Below, one piece after another: positions 9,541-62,346 of a stretch of 64,000 nt of DNA. The stretch covers positions 135,594,001-135,658,000 of the forward strand of contig OX597816.1 of NCBI GenBank assembly GCA_951406725.2. Reading direction: 5' to 3'. How positions within the stretch are numbered: position 1 is the stretch's first letter; each line of letters opens with the position of its first letter. Under the pieces are notes generated by a model. It was not told the origin of the DNA and made no database searches. It saw nothing but the letters and a program-made list of their open reading frames with translations. This stretch comes from Octopus vulgaris (taxonomy: Eukaryota). Position numbers and translations under genes: made by a program.

Positions 9541-9612
9541 AGCAGAGTGGCTAAGTAGAAGCATGCTGGGCCCATAACCCAGAGGTCCATAGATTGAAAC
9601 TATGCTCTGCTA
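9541..9612 (+). pseudogene. Initiator tRNA-Met (CAT) gene copy, CpG-decayed, probably a pseudogene
   Basis: 72 nt AGCAGAGTGG...GCTGGGCCCATAACCCAGAGGTC...GAAAC...CTCTGCTA with the initiator A1-U72 pair and GGG/CCC anticodon stem. T6 terminator at 9619-9624. D-arm/A box and T-loop are mutated. Confidence 0.85.
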
Positions 9613-17014: not shown

Positions 17015-18771
17015 GTATGTTGATATGTTTGCTATATGATTATTATTTATGGAAATTTTAGAAGATATATATGAGTAAAAGCATTTATTGCTTTTTATAT
17101 TAATCTTTTATTTTATAAGCACAAACTTTGATCAAAATTCTTTTATTAAATATTCAATTTTTTTTTAATAGTTTTCTTGAAGTAAATCACATTCAGATCA
17201 TAGCTTTGATTAAGCCTACATTGTACATGTTACTGTTGTACATTTTCTTAAGAAACAATATATGATTCTGGGTTCAGTTGCACTGCATGGCACCTTGGGC
17301 AAATGTCTTCTGCTATACCCTCAGCCCGACCAAAGCCTTGTGAGTGGATTTGGTAGACAGAAACTGAAAGAAGCCTGTCATATATATGTGTGTGTGTTTG
17401 TGTGTCTGTTTTTGTCCCCCTCAAACATCGCTTGACAATTGATGCTGGTGTGTTTGCGTCCCTGTAACTTAGCTTGCCAAGAGTAAGTCCTGGGGTCGAT
17501 TTGCTCGACTAAAGGCGGTGTTCCAGCATGGCTGCAGTCAAATGACTGAAACAAATAAAAGAATTAAAAAAATATATACTTATATAATAAAATCCACATT
17601 CCTTTTCCAAAAGCATTGAAACAAATGATACATGTTCTTTATTACATGGGAAAATGAAAGTAAATCTTCATATTTCAACATAAGCACCAGTGGCATCAAC
17701 AAGTTTCCTCAGACGGCCAGGGATGGAATGAACAACCTTCTGAAGGACGTCGTCTAGGATATTGTTGAGAACCTTCTGAATCCATGTCTCCAAATCCTCC
17801 AGTGTGCAAGGCTCTGTCTTTTACGCACCACTGGCATCAGTGCTTTTTACATAGCACCAGCATTTACAAGCCTGCAAGATTAGGAATGCTCAGCTGGAGA
17901 GGGCTGCAACGGATGAGCTTGTATGCAAGAGCAACCATACTTTGCTTGATGTATCTTTTCAAGCACAGCAAACCACCAGGGGTCTCAGTCCCCTGTCATC
18001 CCTTCTGTGAGTTCCAGTGTTTATAGATCTGTTCTCACCACTTCATCCCATGTCTTCATGGGTCTACCCCTTCTATATGTTTCCTCTAGAATTAGAGATC
18101 AGCACCTATTGATGCAACTGTCCTCATTCATATGCATTACATGACCATACCAGCGCAGTCTTCTCTCTTGCACACTATATTTGATGCTACATATAACCTG
18201 ATAAAATTACCTATAACTACCTATATGTTACTTTAACATCGTAAATCATGCAATGAATTATCAATATGATGACTTAATTATTGAGTTCAAATTCCAAGGT
18301 CCACTTTGCCTTTCATCCATTCAGGGTCGATAAAATAAGTACCAGTTGAACATTAGGGTCGATATAATCGACCTACTCCCTCCTGTTAAACTGTTGGCCT
18401 TGTGCCAAAATTTGAAACAAATATGATGACTTAATTAGCATAATTAATGCATAATTTTATTTTGCTGGGCAAATGATGAATATGATGTTTGAATTCTGAC
18501 AGTGAGCTTGTTTTTCTTTTCTGACTTAAGCTGATACTAATAGAGTCTAGTAACAAACTTTGTTTTGCTTATAGTAGCATTCTAAATGGATGTGAACATA
18601 TTTGACTTCAAGTTGTACCTAGTTTACCTTGTATAATATATTAAATTGTAGTTTGCATTACCCAAAATGTATTTTAACTAGTTCTAATAGTTAGAAGTTT
18701 CTTTTAAAATGTTTATTGATTTAAAGTTATTGATAAATATAAGGTTACTAAAATTCACCTTCTATTTGTAG

Positions 18772-19380: not shown

Positions 19381-20413
19381 ACTCATCATCATCATCATCG
19401 TCATCATTTAATGCCTGCTTTCCATGCTTGAATGGTGCTTTTTACATGCCACCAGCACAGGAGCCAGTGTGGTGGCACTGGCAACACCCATGCTCGAATG
19501 GTGCTTTTTATGTGCCACTAGCACTGGACCAGTCAGCCAGCACTGGCATCAGCCACGCTTGAATGGTGCTTTTTATGAGCCACAAGCATGGAAGCCAATG
19601 AAGCGGTACTGTCATCGGCCATAACAAGGACTTCACTTGATGCAACAGGTCTTCGCAAGTGCAGTTTATTGCCCATTGACTGAAGGGTACTCTTAAATGG
19701 GCCAGTTATGCTGCACTGGCATAGGCCATGGTTACGGTCTCACTTGGCTCACTTGCCGGGTCTTCTCAAGCCCAGCATATCTCCAAAGGTCTCAGTCACT
19801 TGTCATCATCTCCATGAAGCCCAACGTTTGAAGGTCATGCTTCACCACCTCATCCCAGGTCTTCATGGGTGTAACTCTTCCACAAGTTCCCTCTACTGCT
19901 AGGGCGTGATACTTTTTCACACAGCTGACCTCATTCATACACAACACATGACCATACCACGCAGTCATCTCTCTTGCACACCACATCTGATGCTTCTTAT
20001 GTTCAACTTTTTTTCTCAGGGTGCTTACACTCTGTCATGTATGCACACTGACATTACACATCTAATGGAGCATACTAGCTTCATTCCTTGCAAACTTACG
20101 CATGTCCTCAGCAATCATGGCCTACGTTTCACTGCCACATAGCATGGTTGTTTGCACACATGCATCATACAGTCTACCTTTTTTACTCTGAGTGAGAGGC
20201 CGTTTGTCATCAGCAGAGGTAGGAACTCTCTGAACTTTGCTCGGGCTATTCTTATTCTAACAGCTACACTCTCAGAGCATCCACCCCTGCTACTGACTTG
20301 GTCACCTAGGTAATGGAAGCTATCAATTATTTCTAGTTTTTCCCCCTGTCATATGATGGAAACTGTTTTCTGCACTTTTTCAGTGTTTATGCCCCTGAGC
20401 ATTTGCCACACAC
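19381..20413 (-). mobile_element. RTE-clade LINE, same family, more diverged
   Basis: WYGHVLCM...KTWDEVVKHDL in the ORF track; same 3'UTR repeats and (GAT)n tail. Confidence 0.88.
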
Positions 20414-20654
20414 AGTGTTTTGCAAAATAATCAAAATTAAAATTTTATCCCAAAGAGAGGAAATTGGAACATTATCCAATGAAAGTCCCTTTTAACACCG
20501 ATGAAGGGAATTTTAGGTCCTGAAATATTGGACAGATTAAAGAACAACAGCAACAGCAATAATAAAAAAAGCAAAGATTACCAGGTAACTTACTTTTAAT
20601 TTTTGTTGCTTCATCTTACAGTCCATTTTGCATTGTTTAGCCTTCTATCTCTTT

Positions 20655-20699: not shown

Positions 20700-20902
20700 T
20701 ATTTTTGGATTAACACTTCTACCATTGGCTTCATGTGGAAAGAATTTTTGCAAATTTCAAGCAATCCACTTAAAAATGCTGGTAATTGCCTCCATTTCTC
20801 ATCAAAATGGAGGTGATTACCACTCTTTTTAAGTGGACTGCTTGGAAATTTTGAAAATTTTTTCCATATGAAACCATTAGTTGCATTATTAATCCACAAA
20901 TA
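20700..20902. repeat. Imperfect hairpin, about 100-bp arms
   Basis: Mirror ORFs WINTSTIGFMWKEF / WINNATNGFIWKKF; centre near 20800. Confidence 0.85.
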
Positions 20903-20989
20903 AAGAATATTTATCCATCAAATGTGATGCTGAACATGCATTTCATTCTCTCTCTTCACTACTGTTGTGTGTATGTATGTATGTGTGTT

Positions 20990-21018
<29 letters not shown>

Positions 21019-21022
<4 letters not shown>

Positions 21023-22557
21023 AACCTAGCTAAAACCAAAGTCCTAATAAGTAGGAAGGTAGACAAACCACAAATGCCTTCAGGTAGATGGCCCTGCTCG
21101 ATCTGTAGAAAAGGCGTAGGTAGAAACTCTATAAAATGTACCCAGTGTAAGCTATGGACACATAAGAGGTGCAGCAATGTCAAAGGAAGGCTAACTGGGA
21201 AGATAGTTTTTGTATGTGGCAGATGCTCAGGAGCAATAAACACTGAAAATCTGCAGAAAACAACTCCCGTCACTTTCCAGGGGGAAAAACTAGAAGTAGT
21301 TGATAGCTTCCGTTATCTAGGTGACCAAGTCAGTAGTGGGGTTACTGAAAGTGTAACTGCTAGAGTAAGAATAGCCTGGGCAAAGTTCAACGAGCTCTTA
21401 CCTCTGCTGGTGACTAAAGGACTCTCGCTCAGAGTAAAAGGCAGACTGTATGATGCATGTTTACGAACAGCCATGCTACATGGCAGTGAAACATGGGCCG
21501 TGAGGACATGCGTAAGCTCGCGAGGAATGAAGCCAGTATGCACCGATGGATGTGTAATGTCAGTGTGCATACTCGACAGATTGTTAGTACCTTGAGAGAA
21601 ATGTTGGACCTAAGAAGCATCAGCTGTGGTGTGCAAGAGAGACGATTGTGCTGGTATGGTCATGTGGCGAGAATGGATGAAGATAGGTGTGTGAAAAAGT
21701 GCCAATCCCTAGCAGTTGAGGGAACCCGTGGAAGAGGTAGACCCAGGAAAACCTGGGACGAGGTGGTGAAGCCCGAACTTCGAACTTTAGGCCTCACTGA
21801 GGCAATGACTAGTGACCGAGACCTTTGGAATTATGCTGTGCGTGAGAAGACCCGGCAGGACAAGTGAGTCCAGCCCACTTATGCATGTCTTTCCTCCCTT
21901 GGACATACAAAGACCTGTTGAGGCAAGCGAAGTCGAAATCGAACCTCATCCGACGACAGGCACCCATGCCAACCTCCCTTCATTGGACACTAAACTCTGC
22001 TTGCGAAGACCTGCTGGGGCAAGTGAAATTGGAATCGAAATTGAACCAATCCTATGACTGGCACCCAGCAGTTGCCAGGACCACTGGACTGACTCCTTTG
22101 CAGGTGGCAAGTGAAGAAACACCATATTGACCCTGTGCTTGAGGAGATCCATTGAGTCAAGTACACCAACATCAAAATCAATGGAAACTGCAGTTGTGAT
22201 CCCTGTGCTGGTGGCACATAAAAAGCACCATCTGAACGTGGCTGATGCCAGCGCCGCCTAGACTGGCTTCCATCCTGGTGGCATGTAAAAAGCACCATGC
22301 GAATCGTGGCCGATGCCAGCGCCGCCTTGACTGGCTTCTATGCCGGTGGCACGTAAAATGCACCAATCCGATTGTGCAGATGGCACGTAAAAAGCACCCA
22401 CTACACTCACGGAGTGGTTGGCATTAGGAAGGGCATCCAACTGTAGAAACACTGCCAGATCAGACAGGAGCCTGGTGCAGCCTTCTGGCTTCCCAGATCC
22501 CTGGTCGAACCGTCCAACCCATGCTAGCATGGAGAACGGACGTTAAACGATGATGAT
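21019..22557 (+). mobile_element. RTE-clade LINE, 5'-truncated, with long repetitive 3'UTR and (GAT)n tail
   Basis: VNLAKTKVL, FRYLG, MLHGSETW, RLCWYGHVARM, RGRGRPRKTW; a 7-nt deletion near 21502 shifts the frame; starts in (TA)n. Confidence 0.92.
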
Positions 22558-28703: not shown

Positions 28704-29885
28704 TACTTTGATACTTTGATACTTTGATAGGTTTCGGCCATTATTGGCCCAGGTCATGTCTAACTTAATAGCACCACCTGGTGAAGTCTTTCAAGTCAGA
28801 ATTTGGGCACTATGGCCCACTCAAGTAGAGAGTTATTGTTTACAGAGACATATCCAGGTGTAGGGGGTTTATCCGGGATTTCTTGAAGGAATCTGTCCAA
28901 AGACTTCTTGAACCCTATAGGGTCAGTTTCTGTTTTAATGTGTTTTGGTGTAATGTTAAAGAGAGCGGGGCCAATTGAGGTGAAATAATTGTGCCGTATT
29001 GTTGTTATGAGATGAGAGTGCGATTTTTGTTTTGGGCGGATGGCACGGGGCCCAAGCCTTGGATGTACCTTAAAGGTGATGCCAACATCATTTGGGCAAT
29101 GCTGATGGAATATTTTCCACATCATGCCGATGATGTAGCGCTCACGACGACGTTGGAGAGAATAGAGTTTTAGCTTTTCTAGCCGACCCCAATAGTCGAG
29201 GCCTGTCATGCCATCTATCTTTTTTGTGATTGCCCTTTGAGGTGCTTCAACTTTTATGATACCTTGTATTGTGTGGGGAGACCACAGTGGACAACAGTAT
29301 TCAAGGTGGGGTCGGGCAAAAGTGGAGAAGAGAAGGATAATGGTGTGGATATCTCTCGACTGGAAAGTTCTGAGAATCCAGGAACACATTCTGCGGGCCA
29401 TGTCAACTTTGGTGTTTATATGAGTGGCCCAGCTTACGTTGTTGTCCACAATTACTCCCAAGTCTCTGATGTTGTTGGACGCCGCGAGAGTTTCACCTGA
29501 AGGAAGGGAGTATGGGAGTTTCAGGGCATCCTCTTTTCCAAAGTGGATTAGCTCAAATTTATCCTCGTTCAGCAGCATATTGTTTTTTTCTGCCCATTGG
29601 ATAACAGCCAGTAGATCTGACTGAATGCATGTCCGGTCACTCGCCTCATTTATGACCTTCTGTAGCTTGGAGTCATCTGCAAAGATTTTTATGTTGCTGT
29701 GCTTGATGATGTCATTAATGTCATTAATGTAAATGATGAAAAGAAGTGGGCCCAGCACAGTGCCTTGCGGAACGCCACTACTGACTTTGGCTGGGCTTGA
29801 TTTTACCCCTTCAACTACAACATGTTGAGATCTGTCTGTCAGGAAACACTTAATCCATTTCAGTAACTTTCCAGAGACACCATAT
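28702..29885 (-). mobile_element. CR1-type LINE, 5'-truncated, with intact 365-aa RT C-terminal ORF
   Basis: [48 protein letters not shown]; 3' stem-loop and (ATCAAAGT)3 tail; flanked by (TA)n. Confidence 0.93.
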
Positions 29886-29964
29886 GTATACATATATAAA
29901 TATATGTATATGTATGTATGTATATGTATATATATATGTATGTATATGTGTATATATATATATA

Positions 29965-30003
<39 letters not shown>

Positions 30004-30114
30004 TTATATATGTATGTATATGTATATTTATATATGTATGTATATATATATATATATATATAAGAAATATTGAATTTCTAAATCTCTCGTAGAGACATGT
30101 ACGGTGGTGGGGCG

Positions 30115-30273
30115 ATAGAATGGTTGTATACTGTCAATCTAACAAGAACGTGACAGTAGGGGTACACCACCGCTGTATAGCCCTAGGAGGCGTTCGATGC
30201 TTCCTAGGGCTATACAGCGGTGGTGTACCCCCTACTGTCACGTTCTTGTTAGATTGACAGTATACAACCATTC

Positions 30274-33483: not shown

Positions 33484-33638
33484 TATGTATATAAGTTCAG
33501 CAAAAATTTAGATTCAAATGAATATGGTACTTAATTTAGATGCACCAGAATTCTGTATGGTGTTATCCATATAAATCCGTGGGGTGAATATAATCAAAAT
33601 AAGCAACAAGAATGACTCCGGAGTCATTCTTATTTTGA

Positions 33639-33652
33639 GTATATATATATAC

Positions 33653-36181: not shown

Positions 36182-37417
36182 TTGGGTTGGCAACTAAGTT
36201 CCTACCATTTTTTGAAAGGTATAATAAAAATAACAACTAATTAATCAATAATGTATTCAGCCTTGTTGTTTACAACTTCTTCTCAACATTCAGCAAGATT
36301 TTCAATACCTTGTTCATAGAAATCACTTGATTTCGACTCGAAAAATTGATCCAACCAGGCTCTCAATTCTGCATCAGTATTGAACGAAACTCTGTGCGTA
36401 GCATTTGAAAGAGATCGAAAGAGGTGCCAAATCAGGAGAGTACGGTGGGTGTGGTAGCACTTCCCAGCCATGCGTTAGAATGGCTTCCTTGGTCATATTG
36501 GCGATATGAGGGCGGGCCTTGTCATGCAGCAGAACTCCATATTGCCGATTAGGTCTTTTCTCTTGAATAGCCATGTTGAGTCGTTCCATCTGTTGAACAT
36601 AGAGTTCCGCATTGACCGTTTGGTTCCATTCAAGCAATTTGTAATGGATAATCCTGTCCCAGTCCCATCATACGCACAACATCGTTTTACACGGATGAAG
36701 ATCTTGTTTCACGCGCGGTGTCGCTTGTTTACGGAGGCTAAGCCATTCCTTATGCTGCTTCATATTGATGTACAGGCACTATTTTTCGTCGCCTGTAACG
36801 ATTTGGTAAAGAAATCGTTGTTTGTGCACATGAGTTGAGCAGTGACGAGCAAACAAGCCAGCGGAGACTGTGGCTTGTTGATTTTTGTTGTCGTCACTTG
36901 AAGCATGCGGAACTCATGCTCCATACTTCTGAAACTTTCCCATCGAGTGAAGCTGCTTCTTTAGAGCAGTGTTGGAGCATTCCATTTTCTCTGCCAGTTC
37001 CCTTGTCGTTTGACGAGAATTTTCATGCAAAAGTTGGTTTAATCACTCTTCATTGAACTCAACTGGATGACCAGAACAAGGTGCATCTTTGAGGTTAAAA
37101 TTTCCATTTTTGAACTTGGCATACCAATAACAAACGGTTCTTTCAGCTATGGCACCCTCTCCATACACAGCACAAATGTCACGAGCAGCTTTTGTGGCTT
37201 TAGAACCTTGATTAAAAGCAAAAAGAAGGAGGTGTCGAAAATGCTCGGTTTTCTTAACTTGACACTCCATTTTAATGATCTGAAAATAAACAAAAATTAA
37301 CTAAAATTAACTAGAAAAAAAAACAAAATATATTCCAAAATGATTCAAAAATAGAATTCTTGAAAAAATTAGATTCCAAAATTTAAAAAAACAGCAGGAA
37401 CTTAGTTGCCAACCCAA
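36182..37417 (-). mobile_element. Mariner transposon, full length, frameshifted transposase
   Basis: TIRs TTGGGTTGGCAACTAAGTTCCT / AGGAACTTAGTTGCCAACCCAA+TA. ORF pieces: N-terminal HTH (FRHLLLFAFNQG..AARDICAVYG), LLHDKARPH, HPPYSPDLAP. Confidence 0.93.
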
Positions 37418-50398: not shown

Positions 50399-53269
50399 GT
50401 AAGTTCAGTTTTAAGTTAATTCTATTTAGATAACAACTTACTTGAAATATCTAACAAGAAATAAGATTGGATTTTTGTTTTCTTGATCACAAGACAATTG
50501 TTGTTTAGACCCCGGTCAGTCTTGAGTGAGCAGACCTATGATCAAAGCAGTTCATCCATGCCTACTGTATCTTTTATTTAGTGTATTTAGGACTATATTG
50601 CCCAGTGTCTCTTCCATTTTTTTAAGCTTGTAGGGTGGAATTTGTGGAATATTTGGCTGCTATTTCTGGCAAGTGTTATCGTAGAAGCTCTTTCATTGTA
50701 AATTTGCTTCAACACTAGCTCATTACTGAATCTGGTTCTCATTTTATCAATCCCAGTTATTTCATTGTTTTAACATGCATTTTCCCATGGTTGCATGGGT
50801 CAAATGGAATTTATTGAGGTAGATTTTCTATAGACAGATGTCCTTCCTGATATCAACCCTCATTTGTTTCCAAATAAGTGAATATTTCCCTGGGTATGTT
50901 TCCATGGAAGATTGGAAATGAAGGACACATCCTGCTTGACAGTGATGCTCATTTACAACACATGTTGTCCTTCATACAAAAACTGAATTAGGCCCCAAAG
51001 TTGTGTTTACCACTTCTGCTGCTGACATCTGCACTCTTGTCTCATCTGCTAAAAATTTGCTACTGTTAACATATCACAAACACCAAAGGAGAGTATACAT
51101 GTCCTGCTTCTCATTTTTTTTTTTCCCCCCAATTTTGATATTTTTGCCTTTGCTGTGGTCTCTTATCCATCTACATTTGCACTGCACTGCTTTGTGAGTA
51201 ACCTTTGCCAAAAACAAGAGCATCTGATTGTACTTTCAAGTACAAGCTGAAAGAAAATTTCCACTGCAAAACAACATGTACTCTGGCAATCCCACTCCTT
51301 TGAATTTCTTACAGAACTTTCACAACTGACCTTGATCAGTTCTCCATCTCTTAAGACTCATTGGAGAAAGAAGCATGCCAAATGTGGATCCAATTGCAAA
51401 CCAGTTTGATTCTACTGACATTGAAAGTAAATTGTTTTATGCAATGTCTTTCTGATCCACTTAATTTAGCTATATCCATCCACACTGAACTCCCTGCTGT
51501 GCCTCCTTAGTGACCCTGCTTTTCTCTTAGTTCTTTCTGAAGATTTCTACCACCAAGACCTATCTGTGCTTTTGACTTTGCGTACTGAAACAATGCTTCG
51601 TAGGCTACAAAACCAGGCCTCTTGTAGTTTGTATTGCACACGAAATCTCCTTCACACATGCAACAACTTCATCTACAACCGTCTCCACCATCTAGCAGGT
51701 GGTATATTCCATTGGGTATAAATTTCATTGGTCATAATGATTTTTCCATTTCTCTTACAAATCAAAAGGGAATTAATTTTCTTTGTCCATGTTATTTAGT
51801 CTTTAACTGTTCACCCTGTTGATTATTTTGGAGGTTCATTTTTTAAAAAAATCATTTTAGCCAAAGAAAGACTTTCTGTACTCCCTCAGACTGGTGAAGT
51901 TATCAGTGTTTATGTAAAGCGGCAACTTCTACAGGTTGTTAATTGTTATAAAAGTGTGGGCAGAGAGAGAAGAAGAGAGAGAGTCTCAGAGGGTTGTAAT
52001 TTGGAGAAGAAAAAATTAAGGTATTCAGTGTCAGGTTTAGTGGATTAGACAAAGAACAGAGGAGGATCTAATGGATGTGCAGCTTGCTAATTTAAAGAGG
52101 TACTTATGTGTACCTGTAAAATATTATAACTACTAGCCTTACAGATATACGGTTTCTTTTAAGTATATTTGTGAGTGTAGTAGTATACAGGATATTATTG
52201 TTCAGTAAAAGGGTGTGGTGTGATTTACCTTGATGTAATTCCCACAGATATGTTTGTTGATGCGTGTACTCTACTGACATTGGCCTTACTTCAGCTGAAG
52301 TATATTCTGACCATGTAAAGAAGCTGAACCTTTTGAGAGTTTTATAAATATGGGGTTGCCATGAAAGTTCATCAAAGTTTGTATGGCCTAGCATTGAAGG
52401 GTTTTAGTTGGGTGTTGTTCATGATATAGAAAAGTGTAATGTAAGATTGTATTCTGGATAATTGATTGATTGTTGTTTGATACTGTTGAAATAAACTAGT
52501 TTATAGGATATTTTTGAAGTTTGTTCATAGCTGTGTACATTTGGTATCAGATGTCTAGGATGTATATTGGTAACAGCTATATATAGAAGGCGGATGAAGT
52601 GTGATACTAATCAATGAGTTGCAGTAATAACAAGACAGTCATTAATGTAAAATAGACAGAAGAACATTGACATGTACCATAGATGGCCTCAGTAAAGCAT
52701 ATTGTTATGGAGTCATCTGGTAAGAGATAAGAAATAATGTTTATTGGTAAGCAAAGTTGGCAAGGAAGCTTAGAGGGCATTATGTTAAACGCAACTGAGA
52801 GACATTCTGATGTTAAAGGTGACAACATTCTTTTTGCTGAAGTCCTATGAGATGAGAGACTACAGGTCTGTAACTTAATGAAAATAGATCTCGGAAATTG
52901 TACTGTTAGACGTTGAGAAGAGAAAGAAACTCTGTCATAAAACAGAACTAGCAAAACTCTGGTCAGAGTTGAAGTACCAGAGTTCAATACTTCCAAGGTT
53001 ATTGTGCAGTTGAATATGATATGATGTGAGATTATTTGATTAGGCATTGTTTAGGCAATCCATTGATAGTATTGTTGGTATGATGTTGGATTTAGAGGTA
53101 AGGAAGAATATAAAAGTGGTTTATTAGTTTGTTCAATATTCATTTTACCATGCTTGCACGGGTTAAACCAGGCCATATATGAGACACATTTTATGGTCGG
53201 ATGCTCTTCTTCCTGATACTTACTTGTTTTTCAGTTGCATTCTCAATATCACTGTCATCAAGTGATCTC

Positions 53270-53675
53270 TAACTGTGGAGGGAACCTGGGGAAGAGGTAG
53301 ACCCAGGAAGATGTGAGATGAGGTGGTGAAATATGATCTTTGGATGTTGAGTCTCACAAAGGTGATGACAAGTGACCAAGACTTTTGGCAATCTGTTTGG
53401 TTTGAGAAGACATGTGAAGCAAAGTGAAATTGTCATGACCAGTGCCAGTGACATGTAAAAGGCACCTGTGCTGATGACACTTAAAAGGAACATACTACAC
53501 TCTGTGGAGTGGTTGGCATTAGGAAGGGCATCCAGCTGTATAAACCGAGCTAAAACAGACTGGAGCCTGGTGCAGTTCTCTGGCTTACCAGTTCCAGTCA
53601 AACCGTGTACCCCATGCCAGCATGGAAAATAGATGCTTGATGATGATGATGATAATGATGACAACGACGATGACG
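53270..53675 (+). mobile_element. RTE 3' fragment
   Basis: GAAGAGGTAGACCCAGGAAGA...GGAGTGGTTGGCATTAGGAAGGGCATCCAGC...(GAT)n. Confidence 0.8.
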
Positions 53676-54824
53676 ATTCTTCTCCTCCTCAAGAGAGGAG
53701 TGCAGTTGTGAAGCACAATTTTGCTTTGAGGTTTTGTAACTGAGTAAATTCCACCAAAAGCATCTGGGAGCCAAGAAGTGACCCGTATGAAGAAGCTTGT
53801 TAGACCTATCTTAAATAAAGTACAGGTCTTTGTGTATATATATTGTGATACTAGCACAATATACAGTCTGCCGAAGGTTGATAATTTCCATTCCAGAACT
53901 TTTAAACCTATTAAACTTTTGAATTAGTTGCTTTCAATGGTTGTGGAAGCTATGAATATTTTGTCAAAGTAGATTCAGCTAAGCAAAGGTATAGAACTGG
54001 AGTGGAGTTATATAAGAAAAGTTTAGTTTAGAATGAGTTTCAGAAAAGTAAGTAAAAATATAAGCAGCAGTTAATGTAATAGCTTTCAGATAGTAAGCAG
54101 CAGTTGATGAAGATGGGGAACAAATGAAGTCATTAAGGATGATTATCTCTGAATCTCAGACAAGCCAAGAAATGAATGACCTTTTGCTACTTAGTAGTGT
54201 AGTGGTTCTGGGTTTGATTATACTGCATAGCATCTTGGGTAAGTGTCCCTCAAACCCACTAAATTTGATTGACAGTGAAATTTGATTGACAGAACCTGTT
54301 GGGAAGCTTGTTGGAAACTTATTGGATGTGTGTGTGTGCGTATGTGCATGCGGGCATATGTACGTCCATCCGTCCATCCATGTGTATTGGCATGAGATGA
54401 ACAATATCAGTACATCGAATAACCTGGCCATTTTTAGTTTCTTCTGAATTATATCCCTTTACACCAAGACCAATAAGATAAGTATCAGACAAATTATATA
54501 ATCAATAAAAAAAAAAACTCTTGAAAGCAATGTCCCCAACGTGGCTACAGTTTAATAACTGAAACTAGTAAAAAAATTTATCAAGAAGCGGGAGATGGAG
54601 ATTGATCCCACTTAAAATATTACACAATTCTTGCAACATTGTTTGGATTCCCTACATAATTGTTTCTATTAATCATTTTACTTTATATTAAGTATAACTA
54701 TTTTTTTGCAACTGGTAAGCTATTTAGCTATTGACCAAAACGTAAGTTTTAACCATATTATTTTTCAAACTACTTCACAAATAATTCTTTTTTTTTTCCA
54801 ATTTTCCAAAGATTGGGAATAAGA

Positions 54825-55905
54825 ATAGAATAAGAATAGACTAGGTAAAGTTCAGAAAGCTCCTAGTTCTGCTGGCAACAAAGGGCCTCTCGCTCAGAGA
54901 GAAAGGTAGACTGTATGATGCATGTGCCATGCTACACGGCAGTGAAACATGGGCCATGACTGCTGAGGACATGTGTAGGCTTGAAAGAAATGAAGCTAGT
55001 ATGAGCTACTGGATGTGTAATGTCAGTGCAACACGACTATACCAACACAGTTGTCTCTCTTTTGCACACCACATCTGATGCTTCTTATGTCCAACTTTTC
55101 TCTCAGGGAACTTACACTGTTGTGTATGAACACTAAGTTCCCTGAGAGAAAAGTTGGACATAAGAAGCATCAGATGTGGTGTGCAAAAGAGAGACAACTG
55201 TGCTGGTATAGTCGTGTTGCATATGGATTAGGACAGCTGTGTGAAGAAGTCACACCCTAAGAGTGGAGGGAAACTGTGGAAGAGGTAGACCCAGGAAGAC
55301 ATGGGATGAGGTGGTGAAGCATGACCTTTGAGCATTAGGCCTCACAGAGGCAGTAACAGAGACCAAGACCTTTGGAGATATGCTTTGATTGCGAAGACCC
55401 GGAAAGTAAAGTGAGATTGCAGCCAAGGCCGATGCCAGTGTTACATAACCGGGCAATGTGATGTGCTTGAGAAGACCTGTTGAGTCAAGTGAAATAAAAA
55501 TCATAATCATGACTGGCACCCATGCTAGTGGCACATAATAAGCAACATTTGAGCATGGGTTAATGCTAGTGCCACCTGACTGGCTCCCCGTGCTGGTGAC
55601 ATGTAAAAAGCACCATGTGAACATGGTTGATGCCAGTGCCTCTTGACTGGCTCCCATATTGGTGGCACGTAAAAAGCATTATCTGAATGTGGTTGATGCC
55701 AGTGCCGCCTGACTGGCTCCCATGCCAGTGGCATGTAAAAAGCACCCACTACAATCTCAGAGTGCTTGGTGTTAGGAAGAGCATCCAGCTGTAGAAGCCT
55801 TTCCAGATCAGATTGGAGCCTGGTGCAACCTACTGGCTTGCTAGTCCTTAGTCAAACCATCCAACCCATGCCAGCATGGAAAGTAGATGTTAAACGGTGA
55901 TGATT
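54825..55905 (+). mobile_element. RTE-clade LINE copy with an internal inverted duplication
   Basis: Homologous to 21360-22557; hairpin at 55027-55221. Confidence 0.88.
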
Positions 55906-56486
55906 ATGAAAGATTGTGTTTGAAATCGACACTCTAGTCTTAAGATATTTTCATGAGTGCCAATTCTAAATTCTCTACTAAATAGTAATTTAGGATGGAG
56001 TGTTTTGATGATTGGCTACAGGAACTGCATACTTCTCATTGAATTTAACACTGATCCTGAAGATATTTTTAGCACTCTTATGCATTGTCTGATAAGCTAT
56101 CAAATTACCAATATTTTGCTTTTCCATTGTTCACTAAACTACAACATAACAATTCCTTAAATGTATCTTTGAAGTTGTGCAAAGCAAAATATTAGATTTG
56201 TTATAAATTAGAAAATATACCTAGTAGGGAAAAAATAAAAATATACCTAACTTAAAAGGTCATATAAGGTATAACAGTTTCAGTTATTTTTAGGGAAAAG
56301 CAAGGAAAAGAAAGAAGATTTTCAATAAAGTGTGTCTTTATTATTACCCTGCACGCATAAGTAAAAGCAGTGTATTGTAACCACTCGTCTTTGTCTGTTT
56401 GTCTGCAAAATTACTGGAAAATGGCTGAAATACTCATTGAGTGAGCGGTTTGAAATGATGAACATTTGGTTTGATTATCATTAAAA

Positions 56487-56525
<39 letters not shown>

Positions 56526-56555
56526 GCGAGAAAGAAGCAACAAGAATGGATAGGT

Positions 56556-56646
56556 TTTTAGTACAATCGTTTCATACAAGGACAGGCTTTATTAAAAGTT
56601 GCAAAAATTACAGCATATAAACGTGTCCCGTACTCATCAGCTAAAA
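56556..56646 (-). ncRNA. Type I hammerhead ribozyme fold, inverted copy of 58030-58120
   Basis: Reverse complement of the + copy, inside the left arm of a 260-bp inverted repeat. Confidence 0.78.
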
Positions 56647-58029
56647 TACATGTGAGTTCTCTAGACATCCTATTGGTTGAGGCTATACTCATGAAGTAAT
56701 GTAGATAATTAAGTAACATAAACAGATTTCCAAAGTTCATTAAAGTTCTTTAAAGATGATGTACAGTCTTATCACAGAATTTTAAAAAAGTTTTAATAGC
56801 ATCACAGAGAAGGTGACCTAATCCATAGTGCACATATGAATTTCCAGAGATATGATGAGGGATTACATACTCACAGACGACAAATTTATCCATTGTTAAT
56901 CACAACGAGGTGGGTCTCAATTCCTGCTTATTAGCATTACAGAGAGGGTGAATTAATCCTTTGTATAGATGCACAATTTCCAATGGTGTAGATGTAAATT
57001 TCCAGAGAAATGAAGAGGAATTTCATATTCACAGGCGATAAATTTATCAATGGTTGAACACAATGAGGTAGGTATCAATTCTTGTTATATGATTAGGTAT
57101 TTGCCACATTAATCACATTACTGCTACTTACAAGAGGCTGTAGCTATTTAACTTTTAAAGGCTGAAGGGCTTTCTAGAGAGGCAAAGAATAGAAAAGGGA
57201 AGGGAATAGAAGAAAAGAGAGAAAATAAAGGAGGAGGGAGCAAAAAGGGGGGGGGCCTAAAAGAGAAGAGAAAAGGAAAAAGAGAATAGGAAGAAGAAAA
57301 AGAAAAAAGAGAAAAGAGAAAGAAATAGGGAAAGAAGGAAAAAAAGAAAGAAAAAAAGAGGGTTCTAGTTATACAGAAGAATTAGTAGACGGCAAGTCTG
57401 GTTTTAATTTACAGGCATCTAGGAACTAGAGGAGAATATTATTCTTTGACCAGTAAAACAGCTAATTTATTGCTGTTGAAATCAGCTATGAATTTAAAGA
57501 GAATCTAAAGAGATAACACAGTCAGGGGTTTAGGGGTCAGATGCTAAAATCAAAAGAAAATACATTAGGAAAATCTAAGTATAATCTTATCAAAAAGTCA
57601 TTAAAGTTTACTTATTTAATTTATTCATTATATTGTCTTAAGGAGTTGCCTTTATTATTCATACAATGACGGACTACAGGTCAAATCTTAGAAGATCATT
57701 TACATGGTGTTAGGGGATTGTCTATCATAATGAAGATAATCATATTATCACCGAGGGAGTAGCCTTATTTATTTAATTTTGAAATAGAATTATGGGGCTA
57801 TAGTAACTCATTTTATTTTATTAGAGTTATGCTACTTAAATTAGATTAAGTTAGGAATTAAAATTAAAAATTACAATTAAGATTTAAAAATTAAAATTCT
57901 GTGATAAGACTGTACATCATCTTTAAAGAACTTTAATGAACTTTGGAAATCTGTTTATGTTACTTAATTATCTACATTACTTCATGAGTATAGCCTCAAC
58001 CAATAGGATGTCTAGAGAACTCACATGTA

Positions 58030-58120
58030 TTTTAGCTGATGAGTACGGGACACGTTTATATGCTGTAATTTTTGCAACTTTTAATAAAGCCTGTCCTTGT
58101 ATGAAACGATTGTACTAAAA
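58030..58120 (+). ncRNA. Type I hammerhead ribozyme fold (Penelope-like, minimal stem III)
   Basis: Stem I TTTTAG/CTAAAA; core CTGATGA 58036-58042; long stem II GTACGGGACA/TGTCCTTGTAT; GAAA 58103-58106; stem III AC-GATT-GT; cleavage triplet GUA 58112-58114. Confidence 0.8.
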
Positions 58121-60379
58121 ACCTATCCATTCTTGTTGCTTCTTTCTCGCTTATAATCACCCCACATTACTGTATTGTTAAAACAGTATAGTTTTTTTTG
58201 GTGCATCTAAGTTAGGTACCATATTCAAGTAAATTCATTTAAATTAACTTGAATCTTTATTGCTTTTTGTATATATATATATATATGTATATATAAACAA
58301 CTGAACTTACAAATTTCCCGATAAGCAAGTAGTCGTATTATTTTGTTCACTTTCTTTTCCATATGAATCGACCCTTGCCTGCATATGTATAGATCATGGT
58401 GTACTTGTGCACGTAGACATGTGTGGGTTCATACATACATAGATATGCAACTCTGTTAGTGTGTGTGTACACTGATGGATTTGAGGGGTTCGTTTTTTTA
58501 CGACTTGATTTCTTAATTTCACCAGAGTATAATGGTGATACTTAAAAGAAAAAAAAATTTTTGTAATTGAACTTACAAATTTCCCAGTAAGCAAGTGGTT
58601 ATATTAATTTGTTCACTTTCTTTTTCATATGAAGCCACCTTCGTCTGTGTGTGTATAGATCACAGTGTAGACACATGTGGGTACATGCATACATACATAA
58701 ATATACAACTGTGTGTGTGTGCGCATGTGTGTGTACACTGATGGGTTTGAGGGTTCCATTTATTTACAAGTTGATTTCTTAATTTCACCGGAATATAAAT
58801 ACCTATAATGGTGATAGTTAAAAAAAAAAATTAATTCAGTTCAATTAAATGCATGGGTAAGCAATGCAGTGTAAGCCACACTATAATTTGCGAAAAAATT
58901 TATCCATGCACAGGGTATGCATCACCACTCCAATGCCTTTTTTTTTCATCATATTTGTTTTTGTTTAGTATCTAATCACCCCTATTCAAACAGATCCGGA
59001 TCAATAGCATTCAAGTCACATGTATCGTTGGTTTTAACAATGACACAGTAACCTGGATCATATTATGCATGTCCTTTTTTTAAGACAGCATATGGTTTGA
59101 GAAAGATGAGTGATAATGTAGAGGCTATCTTATTGCCTCACTACTATTGTAGTCTTTTAATCTTATTTTATAATTTGACTTACAAAGTCCTATAATGTTA
59201 TTTACATAGGAAAAAAAACTTCAGCGACACTAACAAATATAGTCATTTTCATAAAAATATAACCATTGTAATAAGTCAAAGGCTTAGCTTTCATCTAGAA
59301 TCTCAAATTTTAATATTTCTAACCAAATATTCCCAAATATATTTGTAAATCTACATAGTAAGCTATAAATACATGTCAAATTTACCTGTAGATTGAAAAA
59401 ATGACTAACAGCCTTAATAGATTTTCGGCCCTTTTGGGGGATCACGTCAGGGGCCTACATCACTTGGCCAATCCCAGATGAATGGAACCTTTTAAGTTGC
59501 ATACTATAAGTGTTTAACACTATTTAATATCAGAGACCTGTCAATTTGTTTTATGATTATGATCAACATCATGATTCTTTGCTGTATAAATTGTTTACAT
59601 TAAATTAATATTGTTTAATTATGACAGCATTGTTTGTATTGTTCATGATCAACTTACTACTATTAACTTTTAACAAACATTATCTAGGAAACACATTATA
59701 ATGAAATGATAATTAGTAGAAACTTATAATGAAATAATTGTTAGATACACTGTGAGTCATTAAACTCCAGTGTATTTTATTGGATACTAATTAAAGGTGC
59801 ATGTATTTTGATGTAAGCTTAATGAAAAGATAACTAAATATGAAGTGTTTTAGGTACCTACAAAATTTTATATACTAGCTGAATTTGATTGGTTTTTTTT
59901 TAAAGTCTGTATCTTCTACATTGTAATTCATTACCTCAGTTACTAGTTTTCTTTGCCATGAATTTAGTATTGACTAAAATAAAAGTAACAATTTTATATG
60001 CTCTTTATATTATTAGTTATTTGTCACGTTGAAGCAGTTACTCTTCTGATATCAACTTATCTTAGACCATCATTGGTCCTATTATATGGACTTCTTGTTT
60101 TATAGTGATCTCAACTAAATCCCTCCAACAAAATTTCATGTTAATTTATGTTTCAAACCTCCAGCTTAATAATGGCTAAGTTCATCATCATCATCATCAT
60201 ATTTTATTAAATTATTCATTATTTTCAGAATTATTTTAAACAAAAGCAGTATATTTCAACAAAAATATGATAACAAAAGGCTTAAAAATACTTCTTTATA
60301 TTTCTGATTTGTGTGATTCAAATATCTATTCTGTATTTTTTTGTATCAAAGATAACCAAATTTTCCTTGATTTATGTAG

Positions 60380-61492: not shown

Positions 61493-61870
61493 ATGTCTGT
61501 ACCAGTGCATGCAACAGATAGCTATGAGATCTCCACTCTGTTTCAACAGCTCTGTAGCAGTACCAAGAGTTGCATGCAGGTGAATGGAAAGGACTCTGAT
61601 CGGTTCCCCATTAACAGCAAGGTTAGACAGGGCTGCATGGTTACTCTAACCTCTTCAACTGTGTCATTGGTTATCTGATGACCAAGGTGAGTGAGTCTCT
61701 GGCATTACCTTCAGGAACTACTACCTTACTGACCTTGGACAATGCGGATGATACCACTCTATTCAGCAACTCAATCGACCAGTTCAGGGATGCACTGACC
61801 ATTTATAAAGAAGAATCAGTAAAGCTTGGCCTTCAGGTGAGTTGGGTGAAGACCAAGCTAATCAACATCA
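61493..61870 (+). mobile_element. Degenerate RTE RT fragment
   Basis: FPINSKVRQGC, LDNADDTTL, KLGLQVSWVKTKL. Confidence 0.75.
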
Positions 61871-62346
61871 TGAAAAAATATATTCAAGCCTGTCTGACTT
61901 TATTGATTAATTGCTAGGCAGGAGTTAATGTGTTCATTGTTGGGAATTGCAAATTATTTGAATAAAAGCAAACTGTTTCTGAAAGAGAAAAAAATTACAT
62001 AAAAATATCTGAATAGTGTAAAAATAGAATCTCACTTATTGTTGAAATTGGTAAGAATTAAACTGGACATCATGGTCACTCTAATGTGGAGAACTTGGAT
62101 TATATCTTGATGGAGATATTGCTGCGGTGGAATTGACTAGAAAGAAAGGGATGGTTGGAGAAACTGGATAAAGTCATCATCTACGTTTTTATGTCTTTTT
62201 CTCTGCAAGCAGTAACCTATAGCCAGATGCCCTTTCTGATGTCAACCTGTGCTTGTTTTCAAGTAAAGTTATTTATTCTACTGTTCTTTGCATGTTGAAT
62301 TGCTTAGCTGTGAAGCACCACTACTCAAAAACATCTTCTCACACAT

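Follow-up and report, generated by a model that had tools for sequence, protein, structure and literature searches.

Published 5′-truncated insertions of Penelope-like elements (PLEs) lie next to an inverted copy, carry a tail of 30–40 bp on one side only and favor (TA)n targets (PMC8557442). An inverted 5′-truncated copy with a one-sided tail is likewise reported in PMC3846280, in which Arkhipova et al. give head-to-head as the commonest inverted form, and the tail has been explained as the gap between two start sites of reverse transcriptase (RT) (Frangieh et al., PMC11167929). The present report concerns a repeat of similar layout in Octopus vulgaris DUS2, where it occupies part of the last coding intron, within a window of 64,000 nucleotides (assembly GCA_951406725.2, contig OX597816.1, positions 135,594,001 to 135,658,000 of the forward strand; all coordinates below are those of the window). 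This high-copy repeat between two (TA)n runs is read as a young, 5′-truncated insertion of Penelope-like type, and its sense ribozyme as probably inert when transcribed in DUS2 pre-mRNA, a reading to which a probability of about 0.75 is assigned.

Minimal hammerhead ribozymes of PLEs have been found paired on opposite strands, 100–700 bp apart (Cervera and de la Pena 2014, PMC4209133); in vitro, cleavage by a single motif was below detection in that study and dimers cleaved at a low level, and a review also describes low activity even as dimers (PMC6765202). PMC11167929 reports that the ribozyme requires PLE protein and that, in Anolis, no reads end at the cut. Penelope-13_HM has a 5′ copy in inverted orientation and a hammerhead on each strand, together with a G-U pair at 10.1-11.1 and a (TA)n target (PMC8557442). 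Among 25 Hydra-clade families in the same source (counted by eye), U precedes GAA in 17, being paired with G in two of these, and G-C is found in seven. Complete Hydra-clade elements measure 2.1–2.7 kb, and long 3′ ends are known from other PLE clades such as Naiad (3.4–4.4 kb; PMC8557442). PLEs account for 6.83% of the O. vulgaris genome, with 336 recently active insertions (PMC13282606).

Structure of the insertion

Exons of the O. vulgaris DUS2 protein (P0001) were placed on the plus strand by tblastn and exact 6-mers, accounting for 522 of 523 residues (the first excluded), and this mapping indicates an intact coding sequence. DUS2, the housekeeping gene for tRNA-dihydrouridine(20) synthase, hosts the insertion in its last coding intron (50399–60379, plus strand), which has GT..AG ends. 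Within it, two arms at 56526–56785 (minus) and 57891–58150 (plus) match each other as perfect reverse complements along 260 nt, with 1105 nt between them; a repeat finder lengthens them to 265 nt by way of one mismatch and TATA. A preliminary description of this DNA had claimed identical inverted arms in this intron, each with a type I hammerhead and the second in sense orientation, and the alignment and exon mapping bear this out. Beyond that description, the second arm proved to carry a tail at 58151–58269, and the spacer proved to be part of the same repeat.

The ends of family contigs, a paralog with a tail and the (TA)n flanks together set the full repeat unit at 56526–58269, between (TA)17.5 (56490–56524), which marks the short 3′ end and is the likely target, and (TA)13 (58270–58295) at the long 3′ end. 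The main copy (56526–57890, minus) is the last ~1365 nt of an element, 5′-truncated, non-coding and antisense to DUS2, and the left arm is its 3′ end. Cut at 57890, it is joined head to head to a shorter 3′-end copy, the right arm, which is more strongly 5′-truncated, runs sense in DUS2 pre-mRNA and alone bears the tail of ~119 nt (plus strand). At the inversion junction (57891–57894), TTAA fits both sides, a weak match in an AT-rich context, and a loose-end continuation is seen at 57889. Host DNA captured at the junction was considered and rejected, as every spacer bin with data is multi-copy at 84-bp resolution. The main copy also contains a duplication of 158-bp period (56825–57088, 80% identical) and a low-complexity tract (57259–57363) that is purine-rich on the plus strand and pyrimidine-rich on the element sense strand. 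A diverged member of the same family, 76% identical over 102 nt, lies in an earlier DUS2 intron at 33490–33640 (minus); it consists of the 3′ end and tail without a hammerhead, is set between TA-type microsatellites and is antiparallel to the tail at 58128–58227.

The two (TA)n runs are flanked by an older dispersed repeat, apparently split by the insertion into a left half at 56340–56489 and a right half, containing a 266-bp duplication, at 58296–58950, as indicated by multi-copy depth and by contig joints 56465->58338, 56421->58336 and 56403->58477. It has short complementary ends, TACCCTG (~56345) and CAGGGTA (~58910), and a small terminal hairpin region, and is reminiscent of Helentron-associated non-autonomous elements, a label given tentatively. 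Any target-site duplication or empty site would be concealed by the (TA)n, and flank-to-flank joints may stem from paralogs of the host repeat. The joint 56465->58338 (X3 and X4, two of the sequencing runs described below) was not accepted as evidence for an empty allele, both flanks being repeats and contigs with unique flank stopping at 56417–56426.

This layout could arise if the RT-endonuclease of the element made a nick in the (TA)n run and element RNA were copied from two 3′ start points, one at the short end (~58151) and one at the long end (~58269); two RT starts would then yield two outward-pointing arms and a single tail.

Hammerhead motifs in both arms

All elements of a type I hammerhead are found in order at 58030–58120 (plus), as the preliminary description had stated, with cleavage predicted after A58114 and the motif 2.27 kb from the DUS2 3′ splice site. 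Stem I pairs 58030–58035 with 58115–58120, stem II spans 58043–58102 (60 nt) and C-GAUU-G occupies 58107–58112, followed by U58113 and A58114; the core elements CUGANGA, GAAA and NUH stand in type I order as CUGAUGA (58036–58042), GAAA (58103–58106) and GUA (58112–58114). Stem II is closed by G10.1-U11.1, and stem III comprises 2 bp within a self-complementary 8-mer (58106–58113). All three stems are formable, with a constrained fold of −10.5 kcal/mol versus −12.5 kcal/mol for the free fold and a stem III self-duplex of −5.8 kcal/mol. The left-arm motif (56556–56646, minus) is antisense in DUS2 pre-mRNA. A type I descriptor, composed after the motif was seen, matched at 58036 (plus) and 56640 (minus) only in the 64-kb window, and twice in 200 dinucleotide-resampled 64-kb windows searched on both strands. 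The window thus holds one motif per strand, the 158-bp duplication being free of hammerheads, and contains no second sense copy that could act as a dimer partner.

Two details of the preliminary description required revision. Its AUAGG/CCUAU extension of stem I exists as a pair of 5-mers, but folding picks another register, in which 58001–58010 pairs with 58128–58138, and AUAGG/CCUAU was dropped as the favored extension. Its caveat that the G10.1-U11.1 pair may reduce activity concerns a pair that is indeed present, but is weaker than stated, given the two G-U cases listed among the 25 Hydra-clade families; no usable published report on the activity of this pair was found at title level.

Abundance, variation and age

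Contigs from four of 24 listed sequencing runs were compared with 56100–58600; X1, X3 and X4 are DNA-type runs, X8 is only guessed to be RNA, none of the listed runs being RNA by its record, and contigs cannot show RNA ends. In all three DNA-type runs, depth was 1e4–1e6 across the two arms, the spacer and the bin 58200–58283, as compared to 43–63 in unique flank (main copy, 1e4–6e5; tail bin, 16,206, 419,480 and 167,651). Summed depth differs from copy number and is good to an order of magnitude only; the repeat is nonetheless a very abundant family, with a depth excess of three to four orders of magnitude. X1, an exact match to the flank, is possibly the source sample, hence not independent, while X3 and X4 have seven flank differences in common. 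X8 covers the repeat and leaves the unique intron flank uncovered, so that nothing firm about DUS2 pre-mRNA follows from it.

The family extends beyond 57889 in four X1 and five X3 contigs. At the short 3′ end, contigs stop at 58155 in (TA)n (20 in X3, two in X8), and other copies continue through the tail. Further head-to-head junctions occur in single contigs, at 56723/57149 (X8), 56564/58117 and 56636/58092 (X3), among the 15 of 50 joints listed, and at 56830/58133 in one X4 contig. The X3 joint 56564->58117 (equivalent 58112/58117; one contig, depth 147) brackets the predicted cut within 3 nt on both arms and could mark templates with a cleavage-made 5′ end.

Variation within the stems, among the 40 of 140 variant rows listed, none from alignable copies, comprises one one-sided change and two loose-end variants. 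The change, 58066 U>C, converts a U-G pair of stem II to C-G and adds 2 kcal/mol of stability; in the two X8 loose ends the stem III palindrome is perfect, and one of them has C before GAAA. To judge from these sequences, family variants appear to keep the hammerhead fold and core. One letter common to both arms (A58003/T56673) is lacking in X3, X4 and X8 contigs and present in some X1 contigs, consistent with both arms deriving from one template of a young subfamily. With a rate of 0.0036 per site per million years (My) (PMC13282606), the absence of differences over 260 nt of arm bounds the insertion age at ~1.6 My, or 2.5 My with one difference.

Affiliation with Penelope-like elements

As far as sequence can tell, all structural features that were tested agree with those of PLE insertions. 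On the element strand, which is defined by the hammerhead motif itself, the motif lies in sense near the 3′ end, with stem I beginning ~120 nt from the short 3′ end, or 240 nt when counted from the long one. The 5′ truncation is accompanied by an adjacent inverted 5′-truncated copy, the optional one-sided tail is present, and (TA)n, a target of the Neptune, Naiad and Hydra clades, flanks both sides here and follows other copies. The Penelope-like origin and dimer-type hammerhead proposed in the preliminary description are supported. No RT or endonuclease is linked to the repeat, and family membership is therefore rated likely.

Several observations weigh against this reading. The tail (~119 nt) exceeds the published 30–40 nt, and stem II (60 nt) exceeds Hydra-clade stems. 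Rfam returned no hammerhead at gathering score and none among eight matches at E≤10, likely because stem II is long, and shuffled sequences fold as well as this region does (z 0.80, 0.01 and −0.27); the hammerhead status therefore rests on core and stems and not on a model score. Neither an RT nor a GIY-YIG domain was detected in the main copy in six frames (Pfam, with stops as X, nothing at curated cut-offs), none of six candidates was a longer protein containing the 63-residue frame over the arm, and no RT or endonuclease could be linked to the family as a whole. Nine probes of 11–12 nt did not find the family in the accessible part of the Craig library (Naiad/Chlamys/Hydra, PMC8557442), in which line breaks can hide matches; the only hit was a chance match in an unrelated coding region. 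By such short probes the family was also not identifiable with the described Octopus families Naiad_Ovul, Naiad_Obim and Hydra-1_Obim as far as their accessible entries go, and the hammerhead listed for Hydra-1_Obim differs; the family may already be present in repeat libraries outside the Craig supplement or in bioRxiv supplements. Arm-to-arm conversion or homogenization could make the insertion seem younger than it is. Finally, none of the contigs listed (32 of 11,387 pieces) crosses the junctions of this locus. Together with the 100% identity of the arms and the difficulty that such structures pose for short-read assemblies (PMC8557442), this would suit an inverted arm created by misassembly, but the two ends differ in keeping with the two real 3′ ends of the family, contigs contain other fold-back junctions and published PLE insertions have the same layout, making such an artefact highly improbable.

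Pattern scans for relatives gave 0 and 27 viral loci, 54 metagenome loci and none in prokaryote genomes. The 54 metagenome and 27 viral loci were dismissed as chance, with no match beyond ~27 nt except low-complexity purine matches in one locus.

A different account of the family is that it represents a non-autonomous derivative, similar to a retrozyme or short interspersed element, that borrows a Penelope-like enzyme, rather than a coding element's 3′ end; such a derivative would share the same insertion mechanism. At least 1.37 kb of non-coding sequence upstream of the 3′ end is long beside complete Hydra-clade elements of 2.1–2.7 kb, and animal retrozymes have been argued to come from the pseudo-long terminal repeats (pLTRs) of PLEs (10.64898/2026.07.22.740005). 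However, the tandem same-orientation hammerhead units of retrozymes are absent from the 64-kb window, the family continues upstream of the truncation, and the Naiad clade illustrates that long 3′ ends exist in other PLEs. A borrowed-enzyme derivative is therefore regarded as possible but unlikely, and the truncated 3′ end of a Penelope-like element remains preferred.

Pairing, cleavage and editing in DUS2 pre-mRNA

The preliminary description had proposed that the antisense arm is made first and traps the ribozyme. A stable duplex is indeed predicted, at −452 kcal/mol versus −71 kcal/mol for the alternative (hammerhead-competent arm −32, free antisense arm −39), a lead of ~380 kcal/mol. The order of the arms, however, is forced by geometry and does not constitute a gate: both 3′ ends of head-to-head arms point outward, and antisense therefore precedes sense on either host strand, with no need for selection or design. 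Trapping is plausible in this model because the duplex energy favors it and because intronic inverted repeats (Alu) pair and are edited in vivo (PMC526178). It is probably redundant, since folding as a dimer would take another sense motif, which the window lacks; judged by its sequence, a lone ribozyme without a sense partner and with 2 bp in stem III is likely to be inactive in any case. Cleavage is thus predicted to be negligible for want of a sense dimer partner and, separately, because of the arm duplex. Upon DUS2 transcription the arms would pair as a 260-bp duplex, undergo editing as other intronic inverted repeats do and be removed with the intron, the ribozyme likely being an inert passenger and no gene switch.

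A stronger role for the duplex would be as a passive filter, in which a free ribozyme would cut DUS2 pre-mRNA, the inverted arm silences it, and fold-backs survive in introns while solo sense copies are purged. In addition to the predicted energies and the pairing of Alu repeats, this would be in line with the retention of the core by family variants (58066 U>C and the X8 stem III palindromes), with the up to 20-fold mRNA reduction caused by a fast intronic hammerhead in zebrafish (PMC11856399) and with the under-representation of retrozymes in Xenopus introns (10.64898/2026.07.22.740005). However, 42–44% of Xenopus retrozyme copies overlap introns in the same source, PLE hammerheads are slow even as dimers (PMC4209133, PMC6765202), stem III has 2 bp and no sense partner in the window, and selection cannot be shown from one locus. 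Such a filter is judged improbable. Its generalization, that PLE fold-backs are self-disarming and active hammerheads enter introns of either host orientation as fold-backs, with solo sense copies purged, is about equally improbable. If it were true, Octopus, with a young high-copy family and strong ADAR activity, would show an intron strand bias that vanishes in fold-backs; the bias in solo as compared to fold-back copies bears on whether PLE hammerheads cut in vivo.

The further proposal of the preliminary description, that ADAR editing or unwinding frees the ribozyme and so regulates DUS2 output, is not supported. In its favor, ADAR would likely act on the arm duplex, repeats in introns and untranslated regions are editing targets in squid (PMC9068888), and A>G and T>C changes make up 29 of 72 difference sites in X8 versus 14/86, 19/90 and 20/90 in the DNA runs (Fisher p 0.001–0.016). 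This last comparison uses family-wide contigs, another individual and unequal coverage, and the excess is a weak hint of editing of the family, not of the DUS2 locus. In a simple simulation of adenosine-to-inosine editing (25 draws per level), the duplex was still ahead by ~125 kcal/mol at 30% editing under a harsh model with I-U unpaired, parity was reached near 50%, and with I-U treated as G-U the duplex never melted. Hammerhead function requires A6, A9, A13, A14 and A15.1, all of which were unedited in 3% of cores near 50% editing. Editing sufficient for melting would therefore spare ~3% of cores, making gating unlikely. The arm order dictated by geometry, an insertion likely younger than ~2.5 My and 17 other inverted pairs in the same pre-mRNA (≥80 nt, ≥75%; 18/58 pairs with the hammerhead arms), none equally perfect, likewise count against a regulatory gate, which is considered very remote. 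No published report of fold-back masking or of editing-gated intronic hammerheads was found at title and abstract level, which is no proof of absence.

Other repeats in and near DUS2

Another likely source of double-stranded RNA is an inverted pair of 663 nt, 81% identical, in a DUS2 intron (19754–20414 and 21211–21857, spacing 797 nt). The hammerhead-bearing intron also contains a fold-back at 55027–55221, with arms of 88 nt that are 99% complementary and a loop of 19 nt, built from a dispersed repeat with further copies at 18115–18194, 19911–20049 and 21562–21700; at 55510–55746, a 66-bp unit is repeated 3.6 times inside a common dispersed repeat. Decayed mobile-element pieces at 28799–30133 (minus), 20855–21864, 36377–36667 (minus) and 61627–61914 comprise fragments of RT (Pfam RVT_1), of PHD-finger-bearing sequence and of a mariner-type transposase. 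Approximately 900 nt 5′ of the first DUS2 coding exon, a tRNA-like match at 9541–9612 (plus; 38.3 bits with Rfam, none by ARAGORN) is probably a tRNA-derived repeat or pseudogene.

Comparison with known systems

The overall layout of the locus is the published Penelope-like insertion signature, and a single locus with DUS2 intact is of little consequence; it does point to a large, apparently recently active hammerhead-bearing Octopus family whose stem II and tail are unusually long and which the probes did not find in the Craig library. Penelope-13_HM shares the inverted copy, the hammerheads on both strands, the G-U pair and the (TA)n target. In contrast, its stem III palindrome has 9 nt as compared to 8 nt here, and the octopus copy differs in its 60-nt stem II, in a non-coding 3′ region of 1.37 kb or more with no open reading frame seen and in the lack of a library sequence match. 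Endonuclease-containing (EN+) PLEs (Adineta vaga Pen2a, D. virilis Penelope and Anolis Poseidon) likewise have head-to-head arms, a tail on a single arm and an AT-rich target, whereas the octopus tail measures ~119 nt instead of 30–40 nt and this copy is without a direct (tandem) pLTR; in Poseidon, moreover, an open frame runs through hammerhead and tail, with none in the octopus copy. The motif is reminiscent of metazoan PLE minimal hammerheads (PMC4209133) in its type I core, its unstable, palindromic and dimer-suited stem III and the close pairing on opposite strands, but has a 6-bp stem I, a very long stem II and G-U in place of the usual G10.1-C11.1. As observed for inverted Alu pairs in human introns (PMC526178), a long intramolecular pre-mRNA duplex would form a predicted editing substrate; the octopus arms differ from such pairs in being identical, in having been made in one insertion and in the presence of a ribozyme motif in one arm.

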